Below, in pieces: positions 6,997 through 48,531 of a DNA stretch of 64,000 bases. The notes under the pieces are model-generated. The model saw only the letters and a list, made by a program, of their open reading frames with translations. It ran no database searches and was not told the origin of the DNA. The DNA lies in contig CALFMK010000002.1 of NCBI GenBank assembly GCA_937879955.1, positions 1,175-65,174 of the forward strand, given 5' to 3'. Position 1 is the stretch's first letter. Every line of letters begins with the position of its first letter. A program made the translations under genes and the position numbers. The stretch comes from an uncultured bacterium (GTDB lineage: Bacteria > Patescibacteriota > Minisyncoccia > Phycocordibacterales > Phycocordibacteraceae).

Positions 6997-9900
6997 TTAG
7001 AGCAGCTTGAGGTTCTCCACGGAAAGCGACGTCTCGCCGTTGCGGACCGACACCGTCGCCTTCACGAGGAGGCAGCGGTCGGCGACCAGGAGGTCGGCCT
7101 TCTCCTTGTATATCTTCGGGAAAATCACGCCCTCGATGGCATCGGTCTTGTCGGAGAACTTGAGGAAGGCCATCTTCTCGCCCTTCTTGGTGAGGAGGGT
7201 GCGCACCTCGTCGAGGAGCACCGGCACGATGACAACCGTCCCGGCCTTCGGGTCGTTCTTGATCTGCGCGATGGTGAGGCCGGCCTTCGCGGTCTTCTCG
7301 ACGTGCGCGTCGAGCGGGTGGCCGGAGACGTAGATGCCGAGCAGCTCCTTCTCCCAGGAGAGCTTGTCCGAGATCGAGGTCTCGCCGCGAGCCGGCGGGA
7401 GCTGGAGGGTGGGCGCCGCGAACGCGAAGAGGGAATCCTGCGCGGGAGTGGCCGTAGCCTCGCGATGGAAAGTGAGCATGGTCTCGATGTGGTCGAGGAG
7501 GTGCGAGCGGCTCATGCTCTCGCCAGCTAAAGTGTCGAGCGCGCCCGCCTTGATGAGGCTCTCGAGGGACTTCTTGTTCAGGTTCTTCGAGCCCACGCGC
7601 GAGAGGAAGTCGGAGAGGGAGGAGAACGATCCGTGCTCGTTCCGCTCCTTGATGATGGCCTGCGAGATGCCCTCGCCGAAGTTCTTGATCGAGGTGAGCC
7701 CGAAGCGGATCGTGTCCTTCTCCTCGCCCGAGACCGTGAAGTCGGCGCCCGACTCGTTCACGTCCGGCGGGAGCACCGGGATCTTCAGGCGGTCCGCCTC
7801 GGCAACGAGGATCGCGATCGCCTCGGTGTCGCCGGCGTCGGCCGTGAGGAGGGCGGCCATGTACTCAACCGGATAGTTCGCCTTCATGTAGGCGGTCTGG
7901 TATGCCACCTTGCCGTAGCAGGCAGCGTGCGCCTTGCCGAAGCCGTAGGCGGCGAACGGCTCGATGAGCTGCCAGATCTTCGCGGCCTTCGCGTCAGAGA
8001 GCTTCCCGTACTCCTTGAAGCCCTTGAGGAGCTTCTCCTTCTGCGCCTCCATCTCCGCCGGGATTTTCTTTCCCATGGCCTTGCGGAGCGTGTCGGCCTC
8101 GAGCCAGGAGTACCCGCCGAGCGTGATCGCCGTGAGGAGGACGTCGTCCTGGTACACGAGGAGTCCGTAGGACGCCTCGAGGTAGCCCTTCATGCGTTCG
8201 TCGAGGTAGGTGATGAGGCGCGGGTTCGTCTTGCGCTCGATGTACTGCGGGATGGACTCCATCGGTCCTGGGCGGTAGAGCGCCACCATCGCGTTGATGT
8301 CGTGGATGGTCGTCGGGCGGAGCTCCTTCAGGTAGCGGGTCATGCCCGAGCCGTTCAGCTGGAAGGTGCCTTCCGTCTCGCCGCGCGCGAGCATGGCGTA
8401 GGTCTTCGCGTCGTCGATCGGCACGTTCTCGATGTCGATCCAGATGTCGCGGGTCTCCTTCACGCGGTCCACCGCGTCCGAGAGGATCGCGAGGTTCTTG
8501 ATGCCGAGGAAGTCGAACTTGAGGAGACCGGCGTCCTCCACCGCGTGCATGTCGAACTGCGTGATGCGCTTCTCCGGGTTCTTCGGGTCGAACTGCACCG
8601 GGGTCCATTCATACAAAGGAGTCGGCGCGATAACCACGCCCGCGGCGTGCACGCCCGTGTGGCGCACGCAGCCCTCGATCCTCTGCGCGAGGTCGATGAT
8701 CTCGCGCACGTCGTCGTCCTCGTCGTAGAGCTGCTTCAGCTCCGGCTCGAGCTCGAGCGCATGCTTGATCGTCATGGGGAAGCCCTGGCTTCCCATCGGG
8801 ATGAGCTTCGCGATGCGGTCGCCGGTGCGGTACGCGTGGCCGAGGGCGCGCGACACGTCGCGCACGGCCGCACGCGCGGCCAAGGTTCCGAAGGTGCCGA
8901 TCTGCGCTACCTTGTCCTCGCCGTACTTCTGGCGCGCGTACGCGATCATCTCGTCGCGCCTATCGTCGGCGAAGTCCATGTCGATATCCGGCGCCTTCGG
9001 GCGCTCCGGGTTCAGGAAGCGCTCGAACGGCAGCTTGTAGAAGAGGGGATCGACGTTCGTGATGCCGTTGAGGTACGACACCAGCGAGCCTGCCGCCGAG
9101 CCGCGCGTCGTGGACATGATGCCCGCCGACTTCGCGAAGGTGAGGAGGTCGGACACCGCGAGGAAGTACGGCGCGAATCCCTTCGAGATGATGACGTCGA
9201 GCTCGTACTCGATGCGCGACACCACCTCCTCGCTCCGCTCGAGCCCGCGCATGCTGATGCCGTCGTAGGTCTTGCGGCGCAGCTCCTCGGCGTGGGTAGT
9301 GCCTTCGGGGATGGTGACGTCGGGGAAGTTCCAGCTGCCGAGCTCCATGGTGACGAGGCAGCGGTCGGCGATCTCGCCCGAGGCGTCCACCGCCTCCGGC
9401 ACGTCCTCGAACCACTCGCGCATCATCGCTTCCGTGACGAACGAGAAGTCCTCCTCCTGGTTCGCGTCGCCCTTGTTCCCGTGCGCGATCCGTCGCATCA
9501 CCTCCGTAGCCTCGCGGTCCTCGGGCTTCAGGTAGTACACGTCGTGCTGCGCTACGAGCCGGATGCCCGACTCCTTCGCGAGCGCCTTGATCTGGTCCAT
9601 GCGCTGCATGTGCCCTTCGACCTTCGGGTGGTGCGTTATCTCGAGGTACACGTCGTCCTTCCCGAAGATGCTCGCGTACTCCGCGAGCGAGGCCGCCGCG
9701 CCGTTCTTGTCGCCGCTCTTGAGCGCCTGCGCCACGTCGCCCGCGAAGGAGGGGATGATGGCGATGAGGCCTTCGTGATGCTCGCGGAGGATCTCCTTGT
9801 CCATGCGCGGCTTCTCGCTGAAGCCCTCGAGGAAGGACCGCGTCACGAGGCGCATCAGGTTCTTGTACCCGACGTTATCCTTGGCGATGAGGACGAGGCG

Positions 9901-10152
9901 GGAGCGCTTCGGGTCCTCCATGTCCGTGCGCGACTTCGGCGCCACGTACGCGTCCACGCCGAAGATCGGCCTTATGCCGGCCTTCTCGGCCTTCTGATAG
10001 AACTCGATCGCGCCGTGCATATTGCCGGCATCGGTCAGTCCGAGCGCGTCCATGCCCTGCGCCTTCGCTTCCTTCACCAGCTCCGGGACCTTCGGGAGTG
10101 CCTCGAGGAAGCTGTAGTGGCTGTGCGTGTGGAGGTGGATGTAGCGACCCAT
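6997..10152 (-). CDS. dnaE: DNA polymerase III alpha subunit
   Basis: PHP-domain start MGRYIHLHTHSHYSFLEAL; 1052 aa; the ORF-track upstream extension to 10290 is a shadow of the pilin gene; start set at the ATG at 10152. Confidence 0.9.
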   Translation of the reverse strand: MGRYIHLHTHSHYSFLEALPKVPELVKEAKAQGMDALGLTDAGNMHGAIEFYQKAEKAGIRPIFGVDAYVAPKSRTDMEDPKRSRLVLIAKDNVGYKNLMRLVTRSFLEGFSEKPRMDKEILREHHEGLIAIIPSFAGDVAQALKSGDKNGAAASLAEYASIFGKDDVYLEITHHPKVEGHMQRMDQIKALAKESGIRLVAQHDVYYLKPEDREATEVMRRIAHGNKGDANQEEDFSFVTEAMMREWFEDVPEAVDASGEIADRCLVTMELGSWNFPDVTIPEGTTHAEELRRKTYDGISMRGLERSEEVVSRIEYELDVIISKGFAPYFLAVSDLLTFAKSAGIMSTTRGSAAGSLVSYLNGITNVDPLFYKLPFERFLNPERPKAPDIDMDFADDRRDEMIAYARQKYGEDKVAQIGTFGTLAARAAVRDVSRALGHAYRTGDRIAKLIPMGSQGFPMTIKHALELEPELKQLYDEDDDVREIIDLAQRIEGCVRHTGVHAAGVVIAPTPLYEWTPVQFDPKNPEKRITQFDMHAVEDAGLLKFDFLGIKNLAILSDAVDRVKETRDIWIDIENVPIDDAKTYAMLARGETEGTFQLNGSGMTRYLKELRPTTIHDINAMVALYRPGPMESIPQYIERKTNPRLITYLDERMKGYLEASYGLLVYQDDVLLTAITLGGYSWLEADTLRKAMGKKIPAEMEAQKEKLLKGFKEYGKLSDAKAAKIWQLIEPFAAYGFGKAHAACYGKVAYQTAYMKANYPVEYMAALLTADAGDTEAIAILVAEADRLKIPVLPPDVNESGADFTVSGEEKDTIRFGLTSIKNFGEGISQAIIKERNEHGSFSSLSDFLSRVGSKNLNKKSLESLIKAGALDTLAGESMSRSHLLDHIETMLTFHREATATPAQDSLFAFAAPTLQLPPARGETSISDKLSWEKELLGIYVSGHPLDAHVEKTAKAGLTIAQIKNDPKAGTVVIVPVLLDEVRTLLTKKGEKMAFLKFSDKTDAIEGVIFPKIYKEKADLLVADRCLLVKATVSVRNGETSLSVENLKLL

Positions 10153-38717: not shown

Positions 38718-39995
38718 ATGCCAACTGCGAAGAAGCCAGCCAAGAAGGCTGCACCGAAGAAAGTAGTGAAGAAGGCCGCTCCTAAGAAGGCGGTGAAGAA
38801 GGCTGCGCCTAAGAAGGCAGCCAAGAAGGCGCCTGCGAAGAAGGCAGCGGTTGCGAAGAAGCCGACCAAGAAGGTCGCGCTCAAGAACATCGTCCGCGCG
38901 GCAGCGACAGGCGCGAAGGCGAAGGCCGCAGCCGTGAAGGTAGACAAGGCCGACGTCCTCATCAAGAAGGGCAAGGAGCGCGGCTACATCACGTACTCGG
39001 AGATCCTCAAGGAGTTCCCGCACGTGGAGGACGACATCATGTTCCTCGACGAGCTCTACGAGAAGTTCACCGCCGCCGGCATCGACATCCTCGAGGGCGG
39101 CATGCTCGCCGATGACACGGACCAGTACCTCGCTACCCGCAACATAAAGAGCCGCGACTCAGGCGCGTACGACTCCATCCAGATCTACCTCCGCGAGATC
39201 GGCCAATACCCGCTCCTCACGGCTTCCGAAGAGCGCGAGCTCGCGCAGCGTATCGAGAAGGGGGACGACGAGGCGCGCAATATCCTCGCCCGCTCGAACC
39301 TCCGCCTCGTGGTATCGATCGCAAAGAAGTACGTAGGCCGGTCTCCTGACCTGACCCTTCTCGACCTCATCCAGGAGGGCAACCTCGGCCTCTTCAAGGC
39401 CGTCGACAAGTTCGACTGGAACAAGGGATTCAAGTTCTCGACCTATGCGACGTGGTGGATCCGCCAGGCCATCACCCGCGCGCTCGCGGACCAGTCCCGC
39501 ACCATCCGCATCCCGGTGCACATGGTGGAGACCATCGCGAAGTACAAGCAGGTGTCCCGCCGCTTGGCACAGGTGCTCGGCCGCGATCCGCAGCCTGAGG
39601 AGATCGCCATCGAGATGGGCGTCGAGGTGGACAAGATCTACCAGATCGAGAAGATCAACCAGGACACGCTCTCGCTCGAGAACCCTATAGGCTCCGATGA
39701 CGACCAGAACTCCACCCTCGGTGACTTCATCGCGGACGATAAGATCCCGTCTCCTATCCAGGAGTCCTCGGAGCGCATCCTCGGCGAGCAGGTCCGCGAC
39801 ATCCTCGAGGACCTCTCTCCGAAGGAGCGCAAGATCCTCGAGATGCGCCACGGCCTCCTCGACGGCGTGTACCACACGCTCGAGGAAGTGGGTAAGGAGT
39901 TCGGCGTCACCCGCGAGCGTATCCGCCAGATCGAGGCGAAGGCGCTGGAGAAGATCAGGACGCATGAGAAGTCCCGTCGTTTGAAGAGTTACTAA
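38718..39995 (+). CDS. rpoD: RNA polymerase sigma-70 factor with a histone-H1-like Lys/Ala-rich N-terminal repeat tract
   Basis: Regions 2-4 ([41 protein letters not shown]-terminal [23 protein letters not shown]); the N-terminus is [18 protein letters not shown]... repeats. Confidence 0.9.
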
Positions 39996-39999
39996 ACGA

Positions 40000-40027
40000 A
40001 AGACCCGCGAGAGCGGGTCTTTTGTTT
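40000..40027 (+). terminator. intrinsic terminator after rpoD (aagacccgc-gaga-gcgggtcttttgttt); also the left edge of the low-GC island
   Basis: Hairpin plus T-run read directly; base composition switches from high GC to AT-rich immediately downstream. Confidence 0.6.
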
Positions 40028-41053
40028 ATGGAACAGATAAAATTTTCCTGGATTTTTAATAAAAAATCAGTCTATTGCGATTTAAGAAACGAAGTCCATA
40101 CTTGCTTCATGAAGGAAAGGGATTCGGTTCGGCCACAGAACAATCAAGAAGGCAAATTAAAAAAGCAACAGAAAAATTCTGTTGTGAATAAGCAATCGCT
40201 GTCGCTTGTTGGAAATACCATCGATAGTATTGATGTACGATTGAGCTATAAAATTGTAGAGCTTTTTTCTGAGGGTCTGTACGCAAGTCCTAATAAGGCA
40301 GTTGAAGAGCTTGTTGCTAACTCATTTGATGCTGGTGCAAGGAAAGTCTTAGTACTTCTCTCAAAAGATCTGCATGGGCAAGATGCATCAATTGCAGTTA
40401 TTGATGATGGCGAGGGTATGAATGCAGCAGGTTTGAAGCAGCACTGGCTTATAGGGGTAAGCGGGAAACGAAAGGAGCATCCGCTACCGAATGGCAGGCA
40501 GCAAATTGGAAAATTCGGAATTGGTAAACTGGCAACCTACGTTCTTTCAAACCAACTCACACATGTAAGTAAGCGTGGAGGTAAATATTTTGCGACCTCG
40601 ATGAATTATGCAGACATTGACCAGCGAGTCGGTAAGGAAATAGAACCAAAGACTCCAATGAAGATTCCACTTCACCAGCCAACAGAAGCTGAAGTTATGG
40701 AGCTCCTAAGGCCCTGGACTGAGACTGCAGCCTTCAAAACCTCTGGTATGAAACTTTTCGGAAAAGGGTCTCCCAAGTCGTGGACAGTGACTCTCATGAG
40801 CTCTCTAAAAGACAAGGTTCATGACATTAGGCCAGGTCACCTGGAGTGGGTTCTTAGAACCGCCATGCCGCTTCGACCAGATTTTGAAGTTTGGATGAAT
40901 GATAAGAAACTAGCTCCAAGTAAACAAGGAAAGGGAGTGCTTAAGGAGTGGGTGCTTGGAAAAGATCTTATAGAGCTGCCAAAGCCAGCGTCAAAGGAAA
41001 TTGAGATATCAGAGGATAAGAGCGTAGATAGTGCTGATCCTAAACGTTTCTGA
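40028..41053 (+). CDS. GHKL (Bergerat-fold, MORC/MutL/Hsp90-like) ATPase N-terminal part; ends at a TGA that is in frame with the next ORF
   Basis: N-box ELVANSFDAGARKVLVLL; Gly-rich G1/G2 region IDDGEGMNAAGLKQHWLIGVSGK...GKFGIGKLATYV; low GC; start uncertain (ATG 40028 or 40109). Confidence 0.6.
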   Translation: MEQIKFSWIFNKKSVYCDLRNEVHTCFMKERDSVRPQNNQEGKLKKQQKNSVVNKQSLSLVGNTIDSIDVRLSYKIVELFSEGLYASPNKAVEELVANSFDAGARKVLVLLSKDLHGQDASIAVIDDGEGMNAAGLKQHWLIGVSGKRKEHPLPNGRQQIGKFGIGKLATYVLSNQLTHVSKRGGKYFATSMNYADIDQRVGKEIEPKTPMKIPLHQPTEAEVMELLRPWTETAAFKTSGMKLFGKGSPKSWTVTLMSSLKDKVHDIRPGHLEWVLRTAMPLRPDFEVWMNDKKLAPSKQGKGVLKEWVLGKDLIELPKPASKEIEISEDKSVDSADPKRF

Positions 41054-41107
41054 CTGTTAACACCCCAGCTTGGGCGTATTACGGGATATGTTGAGGCTTA
41101 CAAGGAT

Positions 41108-42730
41108 TTGCTGACCGGAAAATCTGACGAAATAGGAAGGAGCTACGGCTTCTTCGTATATGTATTTGATCGTCTCGTTAATGTCGAGGATGGTCACTTT
41201 GGAATCTCACCTGATGAACTTCGGCATGGAACCTTTGGTCGCTTCAGGGCGGTGGTCCACATGAACGGTCTTGATAGGCTTTTAAGGGCAAACCGTGAAG
41301 CACTTATGGAAGGACCGGAACTTGAAGAGGCAAGAAATATCTTGCGAGGCATCTTTAACTCCGTTCGTTCTACAATTGAGAGTCAGGTAAGTCTCGAAGA
41401 ACCTGGAGCACAACTCGCCCGAAAGCTTGCTGCAAGCCCCGGAAGCTTGTCTCGATCACCAATCGTCGAGCTGGCACGTGCTGTGGTGGAGAAGCGTAGT
41501 AATGCACATTATCTTTCCGTACCTGATTTAAAGAACGATTCTGAACGAGAAGCTTTTATAAGCGAGCTTGAATCTCGCGCTGCGGATCCAGAAAAATTCG
41601 TTTCTGGACTCACTCTCGATTACAACGGTAGTCCCGATGAAGGTTTTGCAAAATATGATACCCAAACGGCAAACCTACGTATAAACGCCTGGCATCCACT
41701 TGTCGCAACTTTCCACGACGAATTCTCAAGTAAAACGAGCGGACAGCCTCTCGAGGTCTTGGCAATGGCCGAAGTACTTGCTGAGTCGCATCTGCACGCA
41801 CTCGGGGTTCCTGGAACTACAATTAGTGACTTTCTCGCAACACGCGATAGGCTGCTCCGGTATCTTGCAAATGAATCCGGACATCAAAGTGCATTTTCTG
41901 TTGCAGCCTCATTAAAAGAAGCAAGAAATAATCCTGACTCTTTAGAAGATAAGGTATGCGCTGCTTTCTCAAGTCTTGGATTTGAAACCATCCCTATTGG
42001 AGGTAAGGGTAAGCCGGACGGGGTTGCAACAGCACATCTTTCCGCGGGTGAAGACGGACAGTCTCGTCGTTACTCCGTGAGTCTTGAAGCAAAAAGTAAA
42101 GAGAAGGATGGAGTCAGGGTCGCCAATGCTAGTGTACGAGTGTCGGCAATTGCGCGCCAGCGCGATGAGTATGCCTGTAACCACGCAATTATCGTCGGTC
42201 CGTCCTTCTCAACGACAGCGGGCGAGAGCTCAGCACTCGCAAAAGAGATTAGCGCTGACCGAGAAGGTACGGAGGCAAGGGGTAATCGGAAGACCATTAC
42301 GCTTATAACAGTCGATGATTTGGCACGGCTCGTAACACTCCGTCCCCTTAAACAGCTCGGTCTTTCTGAGATCCGGAGCCTTTTTGAGTGTAGGTTACCC
42401 GAGGAAAGCAGGGAATGGGTAGATGGTATCCAGGCAAAGATTGTCGAAAAGCCACCGTACAAAGAGATCATTGGAGCTATTCACAAGCTCCAGAAAGACT
42501 TTAATCAAGCAAGTGTTAAATATTCGGCATTGCGCGTAGAGCTCTCGCATCTCTTACCGCCCATTAAATTTGATAGAGATGATGAACTTATCGAGCTCTG
42601 TAATGCGCTGGCGCAAATGTCATCAGGAGCCATGCATGCCAATACTGGAACAGTTGAGCTCGATCAGAGTAGGGAAAATGTAATTACCGCTATCGAAGCT
42701 GCGATGAGGGAGTATAATGGCCAGAGTTAA
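41108..42730 (+). CDS. continuation/partner of the GHKL ATPase (540 aa) with a C-terminal PD-(D/E)xK-like nuclease motif
   Basis: Same reading frame as 40028..41053 across the single stop; the 18 codons after the TGA are open (LLTPQLGRITGYVEAYKDLLTGK...); near the C-terminus GGKGKPDGVA ...~20 aa... YSVSLEAKSK fits D...E.K; no ATG until residue ~52. Confidence 0.5.
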   Translation: MLTGKSDEIGRSYGFFVYVFDRLVNVEDGHFGISPDELRHGTFGRFRAVVHMNGLDRLLRANREALMEGPELEEARNILRGIFNSVRSTIESQVSLEEPGAQLARKLAASPGSLSRSPIVELARAVVEKRSNAHYLSVPDLKNDSEREAFISELESRAADPEKFVSGLTLDYNGSPDEGFAKYDTQTANLRINAWHPLVATFHDEFSSKTSGQPLEVLAMAEVLAESHLHALGVPGTTISDFLATRDRLLRYLANESGHQSAFSVAASLKEARNNPDSLEDKVCAAFSSLGFETIPIGGKGKPDGVATAHLSAGEDGQSRRYSVSLEAKSKEKDGVRVANASVRVSAIARQRDEYACNHAIIVGPSFSTTAGESSALAKEISADREGTEARGNRKTITLITVDDLARLVTLRPLKQLGLSEIRSLFECRLPEESREWVDGIQAKIVEKPPYKEIIGAIHKLQKDFNQASVKYSALRVELSHLLPPIKFDRDDELIELCNALAQMSSGAMHANTGTVELDQSRENVITAIEAAMREYNGQS

Positions 42731-42732
42731 TT

Positions 42733-43992
42733 ATGCCGGCAAAAGCAAGTACAACACAGAAGAAGGGTAAGACAATGTACGATGCACTGGGACGTGACTC
42801 AGTGCACCCCTTTCCGGCCCGAATGGCCCCGACAATCGCGCTCGAAGTACTAGAGAACTCAAAGAGACCTCTCAGGATCCTCGACCCAATGATGGGTTCT
42901 GGGACAGTCATCGCTCTTGCGCGAGCGAATGGACATCAAGCAAGAGGAATTGATATAGATCCTCTGGCGGTGCTACTTTCGAAGGTATGGACGACTGCGG
43001 TTGATATTGAACACATAAATACCGTAGCTAAGAATGTTCTGGCCATAGCAGAAAAAAGTTTCCCTAATATGCCCCTGGAGAAGGCGTATCCAATAGAATC
43101 TGATGATGAGACGAAAGAGTTCATTGACTATTGGTTTGATCCCATTGTCCGTAGGCAAATGACTTCTCTTTCAAACGCGATCCTAGCCGTTGAGGATGAG
43201 GACGAGCGAGATGTACTTTGGTGTGCGCTTTCTCGCTTAATTATCGTGAAGAGCTCAGGCGTATCACTCGCGATGGATCTATCACATAGTCGTCCGCATA
43301 GAGTCTACGAAGAAGCTCCAGTAAGGCCGTTTGATAAATTTCTACCCATGGTTCTGAAGGTGACAAAGAGTTGTCTTGATAAGAAAGACAAGGCTCGCGG
43401 ACCTGTAGCGAAGGTTGCAAGGGGTGATGCTCGAAAACTCCCGATTAGAAAATCTTCGATAGATATCGTGCTTACTTCTCCTCCCTATCTTAATGCTATT
43501 GATTACATGCGTTGTAGTAAATTTTCATTGGTGTGGATGGGGTATAAAATTGGTGAACTAAGAAAGCTCCGTACCGATAGTATTGGTAGTGAATTAAGCA
43601 GTGGTATTGCTAACGAAGATGAGAGTGTGAAGCTTGTAGTAAAGGGATTAAATCTACAGCCTCGACTGACAACACGGAATCAGGCCATACTTTCTCGATA
43701 TATATATGATATGACCTCTTCAATAAAAGAGGTTGCAAGAGTATTAGTCCCAAATGGAAAGGCAATTTATGTGGTCGGTGAAAATACGATCAAGGGAACC
43801 TATATAAGGAATTCTGTTGTAATGGAAATTGTTGCAAAGCAAGTAGGGCTAGCGCTGACAGAAAAAAAAGTTCGAATTTTACCTGCCAATCGTCGTTATC
43901 TTCCGCCTCCAACAAAAAGATCAAGCAAGGCTTCGATGGATGCGCGTATGCGGAGAGAAGTTGTAATGACCTTCACGAAACTGGCGATTTAA
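42733..43992 (+). CDS. SAM-dependent amino (N6-adenine or N4-cytosine) DNA methyltransferase
   Basis: Motif I DPMMGSGTV near the N-terminus; motif IV VLTSPPYLNAIDY about 200 aa downstream; ATG 2 nt after the upstream stop. Confidence 0.8.
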   Translation: MPAKASTTQKKGKTMYDALGRDSVHPFPARMAPTIALEVLENSKRPLRILDPMMGSGTVIALARANGHQARGIDIDPLAVLLSKVWTTAVDIEHINTVAKNVLAIAEKSFPNMPLEKAYPIESDDETKEFIDYWFDPIVRRQMTSLSNAILAVEDEDERDVLWCALSRLIIVKSSGVSLAMDLSHSRPHRVYEEAPVRPFDKFLPMVLKVTKSCLDKKDKARGPVAKVARGDARKLPIRKSSIDIVLTSPPYLNAIDYMRCSKFSLVWMGYKIGELRKLRTDSIGSELSSGIANEDESVKLVVKGLNLQPRLTTRNQAILSRYIYDMTSSIKEVARVLVPNGKAIYVVGENTIKGTYIRNSVVMEIVAKQVGLALTEKKVRILPANRRYLPPPTKRSSKASMDARMRREVVMTFTKLAI

Positions 43993-44050
43993 TATTAGTG
44001 AACTTGTCAAATTCTGTGCCAGGATTATCTATCTGATAAGATATTTATGA

Positions 44051-44398
44051 ATGGCCGATATAGAAAAACTCAAGGAAATGGTGGTCCAATTCCGAGACGA
44101 TCGGGACTGGAAGCAATTTCATACTCCTAAAGACCTGGCCATTTCCATGGCTCTCGAGGCTGGGGAAGTCCTTGAGCATTTCCAGTGGAAAGACGAAAGG
44201 GCCCAATGGGCACATGGTGAGGCCAAAAGGGAGGATATTGGCGACGAGCTCGCCGACGTTCTGTATTGGGTTCTTCTCCTAAGTAACGATCTGAATATTG
44301 ATATTTCAGAGGCTTTTGTTCGCAAGCTCGAAAAGAATAACGAGAAGTATCCCGTAGAAAAGGCGAAGGGAAGAAACGCGAAGTACACAGAACTCTAG
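44051..44398 (+). CDS. MazG-like nucleoside triphosphate pyrophosphohydrolase (all-alpha NTP-PPase)
   Basis: WKQFHTPKDLAISMALEAGEVLEHFQWK...IGDELADVLYWVLLLSNDLNIDISEAF matches the MazG/HisE-type EExxE/D motifs; 115 aa. Confidence 0.75.
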   Translation: MADIEKLKEMVVQFRDDRDWKQFHTPKDLAISMALEAGEVLEHFQWKDERAQWAHGEAKREDIGDELADVLYWVLLLSNDLNIDISEAFVRKLEKNNEKYPVEKAKGRNAKYTEL

Positions 44399-44400
44399 CC

Positions 44401-45966
44401 ATGTCCGAGATCGAAAGCTTTGAATTTAAGAGAAGCGAATCGGATAAAATTCGAAAATATAAATTCGGAAGCAATTGGCCCGTTGTGTATCTTCTCGAAG
44501 ACGGGAAAGAGCTCTATGTGGGGCAGACCACTCGTGCCTTTGTGCGCAGCAAGCAGCATCTCGATACCCCGTCCCGGGCAAAGCTAAAGAAGATGCATAT
44601 AATCAGTGACGAGGAATTTAATATCTCAGCTGCTCTCGATATCGAATCCTGGCTCATTCAGTACCTTTCAGCGGAAGGTACGTTTCAGCTACAGAACTCC
44701 AATAAGGGTCTGAGGAATCATGAGTACTTTGATCGTGAGAAGTACAAGGCGAAGTTCGAGCTTATTTGGGAGAAGCTCAGGGCAATGTCGCTTGCTACCC
44801 AGGACCTCGTACAGCTCAGGAATAGTGACGTATTCAAATACTCTCCCTATAAGTCTCTTAGTGACGATCAGCTGATCATTGCCACTGATCTCTTTAAGAA
44901 GATCGCGAAGAACGAACAGAAAACGTATCTCATTAATGGAAAGCCAGGAACCGGAAAAACCGTCTTGGCAATCTATTTGATGAAGTACCTTGCGCAGGAG
45001 AAGGAGACACGGCATTTGAAGATTGCTCTTGTGGTGCCCATGACCTCGCTGCGGCAGACTATACGGAACGTCTTCAGGAAAATCCCTGGTCTCAAGACCA
45101 CTCAGGTTATCGGTCCTGCTGACGTAACGAGAGGAGACTACGATCTACTTATTGTGGACGAGGCCCATAGGCTCAAACAGCGCGTAAACATAGCCAATTA
45201 CCAGTCTTTTGATGTGGTTAACAAAAGGCTCGGTTTTGGTAACGAAGGCACCGAACTCGACTGGATACTCGCTTCTTCAAAACAGCAGATACTCTTTTAC
45301 GACAGGAACCAGAGTGTACGCCCATCCGATGTTTCCGAGCAACGATTCTCTCAACTGAAGGCTGATTTCTATAACCTAGCCAGCCAGCTGAGAGTGGAGG
45401 GAGGAGAGGAATATCTTGAATATGTAGACGGTGTTCTCAGCCTCAGAAATACCTCCTATGTACCTCAGGACTATGACTTCGCTATCTATGAGGACATTCG
45501 GGAGATGATCTCTGATATCAAGAAAAGAGACGCTGAGACTGGTCTGGCTCGTGTAGTGGCAGGATATGCCTGGGACTGGAAGACAAAGAACGGGGGAGAG
45601 GAATATGATATCGAGATCGATGGTCTAAGGCTGATCTGGAACTCAACAACGAGTGATTGGGTTAATTCCAAGAACGCTGTTAATGAAATAGGTTGTATCC
45701 ATACTATCCAGGGCTATGACCTCAATTATGCTGGCGTTATTATCGGACCTGAGATCTCATATGATCCCGAGCAGCACCGTATCGTTGTTGATCCAAAGAA
45801 GTATAAGGACATAAACGGAAAGCGATCCGTTGAGAATCCTGAAGAACTTGAGCGATATGTCATTAATATCTACAAGACCCTTCTCACGCGTGGGATTAAG
45901 GGAACCTACGTATATATCGCAGATGAAGAGCTGAGGAAGCTTTTTCGAAAGAATCTAATCGCTTAA
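44401..45966 (+). CDS. GIY-YIG nuclease domain fused to a DUF2075-type P-loop ATPase/helicase-like domain
   Basis: N-terminal VVYLLEDGKELYVGQTTRAFVRSKQH (GIY...YIG...R...H); Walker A GKPGTGKTV; Walker B DEAH-like LLIVDEAHRL; ATG 3 nt after the MazG stop. Confidence 0.75.
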   Translation: MSEIESFEFKRSESDKIRKYKFGSNWPVVYLLEDGKELYVGQTTRAFVRSKQHLDTPSRAKLKKMHIISDEEFNISAALDIESWLIQYLSAEGTFQLQNSNKGLRNHEYFDREKYKAKFELIWEKLRAMSLATQDLVQLRNSDVFKYSPYKSLSDDQLIIATDLFKKIAKNEQKTYLINGKPGTGKTVLAIYLMKYLAQEKETRHLKIALVVPMTSLRQTIRNVFRKIPGLKTTQVIGPADVTRGDYDLLIVDEAHRLKQRVNIANYQSFDVVNKRLGFGNEGTELDWILASSKQQILFYDRNQSVRPSDVSEQRFSQLKADFYNLASQLRVEGGEEYLEYVDGVLSLRNTSYVPQDYDFAIYEDIREMISDIKKRDAETGLARVVAGYAWDWKTKNGGEEYDIEIDGLRLIWNSTTSDWVNSKNAVNEIGCIHTIQGYDLNYAGVIIGPEISYDPEQHRIVVDPKKYKDINGKRSVENPEELERYVINIYKTLLTRGIKGTYVYIADEELRKLFRKNLIA

Positions 45967-46040
45967 TTGGGAGCTTTCAGACTTTATCAAAAATTTATCT
46001 AGATTTGATATCCTCCTGTCTTAGGCTAATACAATCAACC

Positions 46041-46673
46041 ATGAATAAGACGGTACTTATAGCGATTGCAGCCTTCCTCATTCTTGTCGGTGGCATGTAT
46101 TACTTCACCCGCTCGTCGGAGGAATCAGCTACCGTGGTAGATACTTCAGGTTGGAATACCTATACAAATACTACCTATTCATATTCGCTTTCATACCCTG
46201 ATGGCCTCAGACTGGGATACCCGGGTATGGCTGAAACGGTGCGGATCGAGGAGACTGACGATCTTATGATTGATGCTGATCTTAAGCCAGCCATCTTTGG
46301 TGTGACAGCATATACCGTTGATACAGCACATGACTCTCCGGCCATTAAGGAGCGAAACAGTTTGGCCACTCTACCACTTAAAGAGTTTGCTGAAGGTGTC
46401 CGACAGCTGCAGGTAAATGACTCAAATTCTTCAATCCAAGATAAAACGGTTGGAGAGTTACAGGAAATTACGTTTGCAGGAAAGCCGGCCTATTCCTTCA
46501 CTCTAAACAAAGCGTTTGTCTCAGATTCACTTGGTAGTGGCTATATTCTCACACCAGAAGATACGAACTTTAATTTCATCTTCGTTGAGAATAAGTTCGG
46601 CCAGAAACTTATGGTTCGGTATCTTGTGAACGATACCGCTGCAGAAGGTATAAAGAATTCATTCAAGCTCTAG
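46041..46673 (+). CDS. hypothetical secreted/anchored protein (low GC)
   Basis: N-terminal TM/signal MNKTVLIAIAAFLILVGGMYYF; no recognised domain; followed by a bidirectional hairpin at ~46690..46725. Confidence 0.5.
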   Translation: MNKTVLIAIAAFLILVGGMYYFTRSSEESATVVDTSGWNTYTNTTYSYSLSYPDGLRLGYPGMAETVRIEETDDLMIDADLKPAIFGVTAYTVDTAHDSPAIKERNSLATLPLKEFAEGVRQLQVNDSNSSIQDKTVGELQEITFAGKPAYSFTLNKAFVSDSLGSGYILTPEDTNFNFIFVENKFGQKLMVRYLVNDTAAEGIKNSFKL

Positions 46674-46751
46674 CGCTGCATTATAATTAATAAAAAGCCC
46701 CCGGCTCTCGAAAGAGAGTCGGGGGTAGTTCGTTAAGAGCTTAGCTCTTGG

Positions 46752-47450
46752 TTATTGGCAGGTGGCTGCGGGGTAATGCATGTTACTGCCGGAATGAAGC
46801 GGGTCTGGAATCAAAGCATACTGGTACCAGTACTCCGTTGCCTGACTCTCAGATCCAGCAAACGGATCACGGCTTGTACCGCTGGCCGACATCGAGCTAC
46901 GTAGCTCGAAGTGTAGGTGAGGTCCGGTGACACTCCCGCTCCTGCCCGAGAGACCGACCAGTGTTCCGCCAGGGCCGCTCACGCAGGTGATCGATTGTCC
47001 GTTGGTGACGTTGACCGAGCTCAGGTGCGCATAGAGCGTGTACCAGCCATCAGCATGCTGAATCCAGACGTGGTTGCCCAGGTTGCTGCCGCAGGACGGA
47101 TTGCCGGTCGCTGGACAGCCTGTCGTTACGGAAGCAACCGTTCCGCTCGCTGCCGCATAGACCGACGTACCAGATGATACGCCAAAGTCCGTTCCTCGAT
47201 GCCTCGGGTTGTTGCCGTAATAGTACGGCGAGGTGGACGGTATGACCGTGGCATCGTAACGAATGTTGGTGTTGGTCGCGTAGGGTGTATGCCAGTGGTC
47301 CATCCATGCCGTAATGCTATACGGCACGTAGGCAAGCGGGAGCCTGTACTTTGTTTGCGCTTGAGCTGCGCTCCCGTTCAAGAACGTGAGAAAAAGCGCG
47401 ACCGCCGCACATAGAGTGGCCAGCAGTCCCTGATTCCTGTAGCTTCTCAT
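46752..47450 (-). CDS. secreted M23 (LytM-type) metallopeptidase
   Basis: Signal peptide; HRGTDFG...GNHVWIQHADGWYTLYAHLS...GLSGRSGSVTGPHLHFEL contains the HxxxD and HxH zinc-ligand motifs. Confidence 0.8.
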   Translation of the reverse strand: MRSYRNQGLLATLCAAVALFLTFLNGSAAQAQTKYRLPLAYVPYSITAWMDHWHTPYATNTNIRYDATVIPSTSPYYYGNNPRHRGTDFGVSSGTSVYAAASGTVASVTTGCPATGNPSCGSNLGNHVWIQHADGWYTLYAHLSSVNVTNGQSITCVSGPGGTLVGLSGRSGSVTGPHLHFELRSSMSASGTSRDPFAGSESQATEYWYQYALIPDPLHSGSNMHYPAATCQ

Positions 47451-47591
47451 CTATACTCTCCAAATATGTAGGTTTGAGGTTGTGTAGATACATAGACTGC
47501 ACTACGGACCCATGCAAGCCCCCTTTGAAAGAACAAAGTTCGCACTATTTGCGAATACCTGACTCGAAATAGTCAGGTGCAGCATCCTACC

Positions 47592-48053
47592 TTACGAAGA
47601 TAAAGAGAAAATAAAGTCGAAATGCTCTGAAGAAACCGGTGTCACTGAAAGCCTCGAACCCGGTTGCAGAATCATCATCTTCCCAAGATGAGAATCTGCC
47701 CTGATGTCAGTCAGCGTAACCGGCACCTCGAGCTTCCGAACGAACGCGATATCAACCAAGTCCCAGATAGGCTTCGCTTCAGTGGCGCGCGGATCATAAT
47801 AGCTGCTCTTCGGGTCGAACTGGGTCGGGTCAGGATAGGGCAGGGAGACAACCTCGGCGATGCCGTAGACGCCTGGCACCTTACAGTTCGAATGATAGAA
47901 GAGCACATGGTCTCCGGGCTTCATCTCGCGCATATAGTTCCGGGCCTGAAAGTTCCGGACTCCGGTCCAAGCAGTCTTCCCGTCCTTCTTGAGATGGTCG
48001 ATTCCGTAGCTCTCGGGCTCGGATTTCATGAGCCAATATCGCTTTTCAGACAT
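47592..48053 (-). CDS. EVE (PUA-like) domain protein
   Basis: YWLMKSEPESYGIDHL...WTGVRNFQARNYMREMKPGDHVLFYHSN is the EVE/Thump-like PUA signature; start at MSEKRYW, the ORF-track N-terminal extension is unlikely. Confidence 0.75.
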   Translation of the reverse strand: MSEKRYWLMKSEPESYGIDHLKKDGKTAWTGVRNFQARNYMREMKPGDHVLFYHSNCKVPGVYGIAEVVSLPYPDPTQFDPKSSYYDPRATEAKPIWDLVDIAFVRKLEVPVTLTDIRADSHLGKMMILQPGSRLSVTPVSSEHFDFIFSLSS

Positions 48054-48111
48054 TGTTTCCAGTATATATAAAATCCAGTTTTTCTTTATATTCCTGAGAT
48101 ACATTGCAGCA

Positions 48112-48531
48112 ATGAATACTGCAAAAAAGGAAAGGGACTTCAGAAAGCGTGTCACAAGACGTCTGAAAAGGAGTGACCCTGTTCGGTGGGAAGGTCTTTC
48201 TGAGGAAGAACGGTTGAGTGCCGTAGAGGTCTATGCAGATCTTGTGGACCCAAAGAATTTGGATCCCTTGTCCCTTATCAATGAGACATGGAATCGTGCC
48301 GATGCAGTAGACAATCTAATGATGGGTGTGCTGCTCGGGCTTTTCGGAACTGCTGCAGGCAATGTCATTGAAAATTACCTTGCTCCCGCCGGGATAGTGT
48401 ATGAATTCTTCGCGGTAACATTCTTCCTTGGTATTTTCTTTATCTTCAACTGGATACCGGGAGAGATTCTCAATCGAAGCTATAAGGAAGGTCGCTTGCT
48501 CGAGAAGCTCTTAAGGGAGAAGAAATCGTAA
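48112..48531 (+). CDS. hypothetical membrane protein (low GC)
   Basis: Two C-terminal hydrophobic segments; divergent from the EVE gene across an AT-rich 58-bp gap. Confidence 0.4.
   Translation: MNTAKKERDFRKRVTRRLKRSDPVRWEGLSEEERLSAVEVYADLVDPKNLDPLSLINETWNRADAVDNLMMGVLLGLFGTAAGNVIENYLAPAGIVYEFFAVTFFLGIFFIFNWIPGEILNRSYKEGRLLEKLLREKKS

Follow-up and report, generated by a model that had tools for sequence, protein, structure and literature searches.

The closest described systems to the gene pair reported here, a gene for a MazG-like pyrophosphohydrolase followed by a gene for a GIY-YIG nuclease fused to a DUF2075 helicase, are the nuclease-helicases Nhi and Nhi-like. The pair occupies positions 44051–45966 on the forward strand of the window, by which we mean the whole 64,000-nucleotide (nt) stretch of DNA from an uncultured bacterium of the Patescibacteriota that was analysed. 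Nhi of S. epidermidis (SERP2475) combines a PD-(D/E)XK nuclease with DUF2075, has a glyoxalase/bleomycin-resistance-like domain fused at its C-terminus, and has been proposed to degrade phage replication intermediates (Bari et al., preprint; 10.1101/776245). The name Nhi-like was given by Millman et al. (2022) to a protein of the Nhi architecture, from which phages escape through the loss of a DNA methylase, implying that Nhi-like targets methylated DNA (10.1101/2022.05.11.491447). Both resemble the window protein in being a single chain with an N-terminal nuclease followed by a DUF2075 helicase of SF1B type, and in their defence-island-type contexts. A further parallel is the glyoxalase/bleomycin-resistance (Ble) moiety, which is fused in Nhi and a separate adjoining gene in some loci of the pair. 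Nhi and Nhi-like differ from the window protein in several respects. The nuclease head is GIY-YIG in the window protein and PD-(D/E)XK in Nhi, and the window gene is paired and translationally coupled with MazG, with frequent S24 fusions in its family, while each of the two described systems works through one gene. The PADLOC profile of Nhi covers just residues 145–330 of the window protein (profile positions 176–328 of 470), that is, the similarity does not extend over the full length.

A two-gene candidate of the same kind is listed in Table S2 of Millman et al. under the name "Pyrophosphatase", represented by SG192 and SG193 and absent from the main text (10.1101/2022.05.11.491447). Like the window pair, it consists of a MazG-like pyrophosphatase gene and a DUF2075 gene, and it was chosen as a defence candidate. 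SG192 comprises a pyrophosphatase of 98 amino acids (aa) and a 643-aa DUF2075 protein (10.1101/2022.05.11.491447); the former is 47% identical to the window MazG, and the DUF2075 partner in SG192/SG193 has an N-terminus of the PD-(D/E)XK type, as in our locus L042, in contrast to the GIY-YIG domain of the window protein.

DUF2075 has further been described as fused to GIY-YIG or PD-(D/E)XK, and also as adjoining modification-dependent restriction enzymes (Lutz et al., 2019; PMC6765204). Type IV enzymes, which have PUA/EVE or DUF3427 sensors and NOV_C (DUF3883), HNH or PD-(D/E)XK nucleases, share NOV_C/weak EVE or HNH-like ends with some alternative partners of MazG, whereas no reader of modified bases is recognisable in the window protein. 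MazG-like enzymes have been noted as a rare alternative effector targeting deoxynucleoside triphosphates (dNTPs) in PUA-HAD systems (10.64898/2026.01.15.699771). What the PUA-Cal-HAD and PUA-MazG-HAD systems have in common with the window pair is a MazG-like enzyme proposed as the nucleotide-targeting part of an anti-phage module tied to modified-base sensing; unlike them, the pair has neither HAD nor a fused PUA domain, its partner is a nuclease-helicase, and nothing indicates that a modified-nucleotide ligand controls it. MazG itself belongs with DCTPP1/RS21-C6 and the archaeal structure 4qgp to one all-alpha MazG-like fold family, with four metal-binding acids and equivalents of W20 and W46, and differs from DCTPP1 as a bacterial protein that has 115 aa, stands alone and is the translationally coupled partner of nucleases. 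No paper naming both DUF2075 and MazG was found in the literature searched.

The MazG-like enzyme and its nuclease-helicase partner

The first gene of the pair (44051–44398, forward strand, with the stop codon TAG at 44396–44398) encodes a 115-aa all-alpha MazG-like nucleoside triphosphate pyrophosphohydrolase of the DCTPP1/RS21-C6 type. In Pfam, this open reading frame is matched by PF12643 at 64.4 bits (curated cut-off 27) and by PF03819 at 33.2 bits (cut-off 22), and the nearest solved structures found by phmmer in the PDB are 4qgp (1.5e-20) and mouse/human DCTPP1 (1.8e-20). Both acidic metal-binding motifs (ExxE ... ExxD) are present: E36, E39, E66 and D69 pair in the alignment with E63, E66, E95 and D98 of mouse DCTPP1, and these four residues, together with E42, W20 and W46, are invariant in 40 MazG homologues of 60–90% identity. 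As the catalytic acids are both aligned and invariant, the sequence indicates that the window MazG is an intact dCTP-pyrophosphatase-type enzyme. DCTPP1 prefers 5-modified dCTP.

The second gene (44401–45966, forward strand) encodes the short form, 521 aa, of a GIY-YIG nuclease fused to an SF1B-like helicase of the DUF2075/SLFN group 3. Its helicase core, defined as the extent of the Pfam match, spans residues 174–508 (44920–45924) and is recognised by PF09848 (SLFN-g3_helicase, formerly DUF2075) with 229 bits. The Walker A motif GKPGTGKT (residues 180–187; 44938–44961) and the Walker B/DEAH motif IVDEAH (residues 251–256; 45157–45168) are read directly from the sequence, and G180, P182–K186, D253, E254, H256, Q437–G438 and R497 are invariant in the alignment of homologues. 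Of the PADLOC profiles, Nhi (9.6e-13) and AbiO (5.5e-10) match the helicase half, and PDC-S14 (1.9e-7) matches the N-terminus.

The nuclease domain comprises residues 1–140 (44401–44820). Seven of its residues, Y30 (at 44488), Y39, G41, R49 (44545), H53, E82 (44644) and N99 (44695), are invariant in 54 sequences, and we take them to occupy the GIY-YIG catalytic positions, based on the motif spacing of I-TevI and UvrC. The window protein is not matched by the Pfam GIY-YIG family PF01541 at E ≤ 0.01; the Bacillus homologues, whose N-terminal domain is 38% identical, score 23.3 and 21.5 bits against a cut-off of 22.6. Single-sequence and profile searches of the PDB with the 521-aa protein yield no significant match, the GIY-YIG entries of EndoII and UvrC having E-values of 0.18–1, so the fold was settled by structure prediction. 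The full-length AlphaFold model (pLDDT 89.4, pTM 0.81) has the GIY-YIG alpha/beta fold at the N-terminus and a two-RecA SF1B-like fold with Walker A and B motifs in the helicase half. Foldseek relatives of the C-terminal two thirds are the SF1B-type helicases RecD2, Dna2, SLFN11, Upf1, nsp13 and Dda, with scores of 1e-10 to 1e-6 for all of these except nsp13. The 521-aa protein is a GIY-YIG–DUF2075 fusion. The first-pass annotation, made from the letters of the window, had named a MazG-like pyrophosphohydrolase and a GIY-YIG/DUF2075 protein with the Walker A and IVDEAH motifs; the profile matches, the intact DCTPP1-type acids, the structural model and the invariant residues bear out these assignments, and both motifs are present as it had described them.

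Conservation and mobility of the pair

At the junction of the two genes (44396–44403), the sequence TAG-CC-ATG leaves a spacer of 2 nt between stop and start codons. No Shine-Dalgarno-like sequence was noticed by eye upstream of the ATG. Among 34 genome loci with helicase relatives, MazG lies directly upstream on the same strand in all 21 loci where the helicase is at least 48% identical, and it is also directly upstream of the helicase gene in L035, L037 and L123. In 22 of 25 loci, –4 to +5 nt separate stop and start codons, and three loci have ATGA overlaps. This is a signature of translational coupling; the co-translation suggested by the first-pass annotation from this one junction is therefore a conserved property of the pair. 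The gene order is flipped on two IMG/VR contigs, where the gap is still 2 nt; on the virome scaffold MT836409, MazG comes first.

The pair is also carried by megaplasmids of the Bacillus cereus group, with MazG 54% and GIY-YIG–DUF2075 37% identical to the window proteins and a gap of 147 nt. Examples are H175_RS30570/30565 on pIS56-233 of B. thuringiensis and EXW49_RS29230/29225 on p479 of B. mycoides. One of the megaplasmids has a GIY-YIG–KAP NTPase gene between the two. The plasmid block (L127, 544–6581; L129; L130) has the order HNH_2 endonuclease, Zn-ribbon protein, MazG, GIY-YIG–DUF2075; two of the three plasmids have a zeta-toxin gene ahead of it. More distant GIY-YIG–DUF2075 relatives, at 38–46% identity (Atopobium/Lancefieldella and some Firmicutes), occur without MazG. 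The helicase family is large, with 493 clusters at 50% identity having E ≤ 1e-30 and thousands of clusters at 90% identity; its members are found mainly in bacteria of the candidate phyla radiation (CPR), and also on Bacillus plasmids and viral-classified contigs. Together, the two genes form a self-contained module that moves horizontally.

The partners of MazG were further surveyed in a scan anchored on this gene, which yielded 80 metagenome loci; together with four context look-ups, 77 loci were assessable. A DUF2075 partner is present in 40 of them, with a PD-(D/E)XK-like head in 30 coupled downstream partners (two with S24) and a GIY-YIG head in ten (four with S24). The other coupled downstream partners are a 365–370-aa protein with a weak PD-(D/E)XK signal (six loci), a family of 323–354 aa with an HNH-like or NOV_C nuclease at its end (six loci), RadC (four loci), and singletons including Vsr, a BsaWI-like enzyme, NUDIX and HIT (eight loci), while 13 loci have no co-directional partner. 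Hence MazG is the constant component and the nuclease partner is variable. Among the MazG-anchored loci (L039–L122), the NOV_C partner shows a weak EVE signal in Pfam, and partners of the L039/L041 type, for which a PUA/EVE-like N-terminus was considered, give weak matches to EVE (0.029), Hjc (0.0047) and HNH_2 (0.079). A phmmer search with the latter found nothing in the PDB; their hhalign probabilities are just 37% and 4% against the EVE alignment, and 79% against each other. The HNH end of the Bacillus plasmid block resembles that of the L041-type partner (E 2e-7).

Long forms of approximately 670 aa, which contain PF00717 (S24), make up about 45% of the 120 closest homologues of the helicase. 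In this C-terminal domain, the VPLxGSxxCG site and the GDSM serine are found in ten of ten long forms and the TIK[E/M]Y lysine in eight of ten, a pattern that matches the UmuD/LexA-type self-cleaving module. The fusion suggests self-cleavage triggered by RecA bound to single-stranded DNA (RecA-ssDNA). The domain is not found on the window protein, whose chain stops at residue 521. S24 is fused to both GIY-YIG- and PD-(D/E)XK-type DUF2075 proteins (P0037, P0056, P0063, P0021 and others; L059, L062, L099, L101 and L108).

Neighbours of defence, toxin or mobile type found across the loci include restriction-modification (R-M) systems, an OLD-like ATPase, Panacea toxin-antitoxin (TA) modules, Fic, NYN and Mokosh proteins, M78/DUF4411, PemK, HNH and Bro-N. 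A glyoxalase/bleomycin-resistance-like gene lies directly upstream of MazG in four loci (L001, L003, L037/L038), and a gene for a YgjP-like (DUF45) metallohydrolase is found a few genes away from the pair at most in L001, L002, L003, L035, L037, L042 and L123.

The variable slot between rpoD and the EVE gene

In the window, the pair lies in a region of atypical composition: the host sequence has approximately 64% G+C, and the stretch from about 40000 to 48500 has 39–52%. The best-matching named relatives of the primase (dnaG) belong to Patescibacteria / Candidatus Paceibacterota. The G+C content at third codon positions (GC3) is 0.84 in dnaG/rpoD, 0.53–0.54 in the MazG and helicase genes, and 0.39–0.41 in the two genes upstream of them. 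The low-GC slot (39996–47591) begins after rpoD, which ends at 39995, and is bounded at its far side by an EVE-domain gene on the reverse strand (47592–48155; PF01878 at 2e-57). Five related genomes, including that of the window, have dnaG–rpoD in common upstream of the cargo, and the EVE gene follows downstream in four of them; the sequence of the fifth, L042, ends before any EVE gene appears. The EVE gene is 72–79% identical in L035, L123 and L124, although the cargo between rpoD and EVE differs. Thus, L123 (dnaG 87% identical) has DUF4411/M78 and the MazG–helicase pair; L042 has a Panacea TA module, MazG, a PD-type DUF2075 and Fic; and L124 (dnaG 85% identical) has MmeI, ResIII and T5orf172, without MazG or DUF2075. 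In all of these genomes, the G+C content of the cargo (0.38–0.46) is lower than that of the flanks (0.55–0.64). Since the cargo varies between relatives and the pair is missing from L124, the pair is accessory cargo of a variable slot.

The window cargo additionally contains, outside the module, a gene for a GHKL ATPase resembling the restriction enzymes BbrUII and HgiDII (40022–42730, forward strand) and a gene for an N6/N4 DNA methyltransferase (42733–43992, forward strand; PF01555; PADLOC MTase_II 2.8e-33). The GHKL frame is split into 343 and 540 aa by a single in-frame TGA (41051–41053), and the adjoining methyltransferase is intact, so that the restriction half seems to have been inactivated and the methyltransferase orphaned; this type II/IIG-like R-M cassette has probably decayed. 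An alternative genetic code was considered for the TGA and set aside: the other open reading frames of the island have no internal TGA under table 11, and one TGA cannot decide.

The first-pass annotation left two readings, a module separate from the ATPase–methyltransferase pair, or the effector arm of one larger system including it. The latter would fit the co-directionality of the four genes and the 58-nt spacer between methyltransferase and MazG, which has no promoter- or terminator-like site, as well as the presence of a methyltransferase homologue next to the pair in L016. However, this is the only close homologue near the pair (45% identical), the only others being distant ones in L035/L036, and a GHKL homologue was found in none of the other loci compared, including all 21 genome loci. 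Moreover, the GC3 of the two cassettes differs, the GHKL gene is broken, and relatives carry different R-M or TA cargo. The comparison of cargo and the absence of GHKL elsewhere leave the single-system reading without support, and we consider it highly improbable; the separate module is the reading that stands, and MazG and GIY-YIG–DUF2075 recur together in other genomes without the GHKL partner.

No tRNA gene was found in the window, no convincing direct repeats flank the edges of the island, and no RNA families were found in the window. A scan for promoters and terminators gave counts no higher than in shuffled sequence. Downstream of the pair, positions 46005–47450 encode a membrane-anchored 222-aa protein with a weak match to PsbP_2 and, on the opposite strand, a secreted M23 peptidase; the 222-aa protein has no match in the other loci compared, and the peptidase one weak, unlinked match in L034.

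Possible function and competing explanations

The explanation that we favour, at slightly better than even confidence when taken as a whole, is that of a mobile module of MazG and a nuclease-helicase that defends against invading DNA, with MazG acting on modified dNTPs. Its parts differ in strength. The structural and comparative part is secure; a defence role of the pair we consider reasonably probable; and the specific mechanism proposed for MazG is tentative. The GIY-YIG–DUF2075 protein may be regarded as having the architecture of Nhi and Nhi-like but another nuclease at its head. Its helicase would engage foreign DNA, in the form of replication intermediates or of methylated or modified DNA as reported for Nhi and Nhi-like, and translocate along it, and the GIY-YIG domain would make the cuts. 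MazG would hydrolyse non-canonical dNTPs, most likely base-modified and dCTP-like, and could thereby starve phages of modified precursors, or else block the re-incorporation into the host chromosome of modified nucleotides freed from degraded DNA. In about half of the close homologues, the S24 domain probably ties the activity to RecA-ssDNA.

One may speculate further, though with a good deal of doubt, that DCTPP1-like MazG is a general "pool-hygiene" accessory recruited by DNA-degrading immune nucleases (Nhi-like, type IV-like) and destroying base-modified dNTPs, either to deny phages these precursors or to keep modified nucleotides from destroyed foreign DNA out of the host genome, where they would provoke autoimmunity. 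The S24 variants would then be modules switched as a whole by RecA-ssDNA via UmuD-like self-cleavage.

Several observations weigh against a defence module of this kind. SG192, from Bacillus firmus, is recorded with "x" (none) for observed defence, and SG193 with "Cloning failed" (10.1101/2022.05.11.491447). The first-pass annotation had pointed to a defence context and to nucleotide-pool manipulation combined with nucleic-acid cleavage. Such a mode of action is hypothetical; the neighbours are indeed rich in defence and toxin genes, but SG192, the one homologous pyrophosphatase–DUF2075 construct put to the test, gave no defence. Some neighbours are of housekeeping or DNA-repair type (glycosyltransferases, Smr, an AddA-like helicase, an ExoIII-like protein, glyoxalase). 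The 13 of 77 MazG loci without a recognisable partner imply that the enzyme can work alone. In a mirror-tree test on 30 pairs, the distances of MazG and helicase are weakly correlated, with a Mantel r of 0.18, a value reached by 214 of 2000 permutations; as most of the pairs are approximately 40–44% divergent, the test carries little information. In L036, MazG (9663–9920) ends at a premature stop, compared with 9650–9997 in L035, the helicase proteins of the two being identical; MazG may be dispensable there, or this may be an assembly error. As no promoter- or terminator-like site separates methyltransferase and MazG, co-transcription with the R-M genes is possible in the window. Finally, the substrate specificity assigned to MazG is an extrapolation from its similarity to DCTPP1 alone.

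Part of this evidence would fit a housekeeping module for DNA repair and nucleotide hygiene in reduced-genome CPR bacteria, in which the nuclease-helicase deals with DNA that is damaged or has been imported, MazG sanitises the pool of dNTPs obtained by salvage, and the S24 variants answer an SOS signal. The negative SG192 phage-defence test and the repair-type neighbours of some loci, to which a Ble-like gene and a separate S24 protein can be added, are in line with such a role, as are the frequency of the UmuD/LexA-like fusion among close homologues, the great abundance of the helicase family in Patescibacteria, and the occurrence of this MazG subfamily alone or beside NUDIX, HIT and Vsr. Yet the close relative L124 has other defence cargo in the rpoD–EVE slot instead of the pair, the composition of the pair is foreign to its host, the pair travels on Bacillus megaplasmids and viral-classified contigs, and variable genes of the R-M, TA, OLD, Fic and Mokosh types predominate around it, where a conserved repair operon is missing. 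We therefore regard a housekeeping function, rather than immunity, as fairly unlikely.

Less probable again is abortive infection with MazG as the effector, where the nuclease-helicase would sense foreign DNA and free or activate MazG to deplete dCTP or other dNTPs, after the model of the dCTP deaminase/dGTPase or PUA-Cal-HAD systems. Such a role would explain why the catalytic residues of MazG are invariant, agrees with translational coupling, which implies that the two proteins are made in a fixed ratio and may form a complex, and has a parallel in the MazG-like effectors of PUA-HAD systems; but the 115-aa MazG has no regulatory domain, its helicase partner has an intact nuclease active site of its own, L036 tolerates a truncated MazG, and the enzyme also occurs alone or with unrelated plausible effectors, several of which, RadC and NUDIX excepted, are nucleases. 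The layout, in which a small gene precedes and is closely coupled to a larger nuclease gene, is typical of TA modules, so MazG might neutralise a toxic nuclease-helicase, making the module addictive or selfish instead of protective; the failed cloning of SG193 and the neighbouring zeta toxin, PemK and Panacea modules could be seen in the same light. The invariance of the enzymatic residues in 40 sequences, however, speaks for a catalytic role and not one of binding alone, the gene order is flipped in some loci, the helicase gene of L036 is intact beside a truncated MazG, and GIY-YIG–DUF2075 relatives of 38–46% identity manage without MazG, which makes a TA-like pair quite improbable.

As a defence module, the pair is a variation on the known theme of nuclease-helicase defence and contains no new principle as yet, and the hypothesis is experimentally tractable. 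Nhi-type nuclease-helicases are thought to work alone, and here a large, widespread branch of them is locked to a nucleotide pyrophosphatase. With the plasmid versions from Bacillus thuringiensis and B. mycoides, the idea can be put to the test in a host that is easy to work with, and the S24 fusions are a natural starting point for learning how enzymes of this kind are switched on. The comparison also documents a defence hot spot from rpoD to the EVE gene in Paceibacterota, a group in which there has been hardly any experimental work on immunity. Should the pairing prove functional, it would join the cutting of foreign DNA and the editing of the nucleotide pool, defence themes that are usually kept apart, and would give a concrete role to many small "MazG-like" genes adjoining nucleases.

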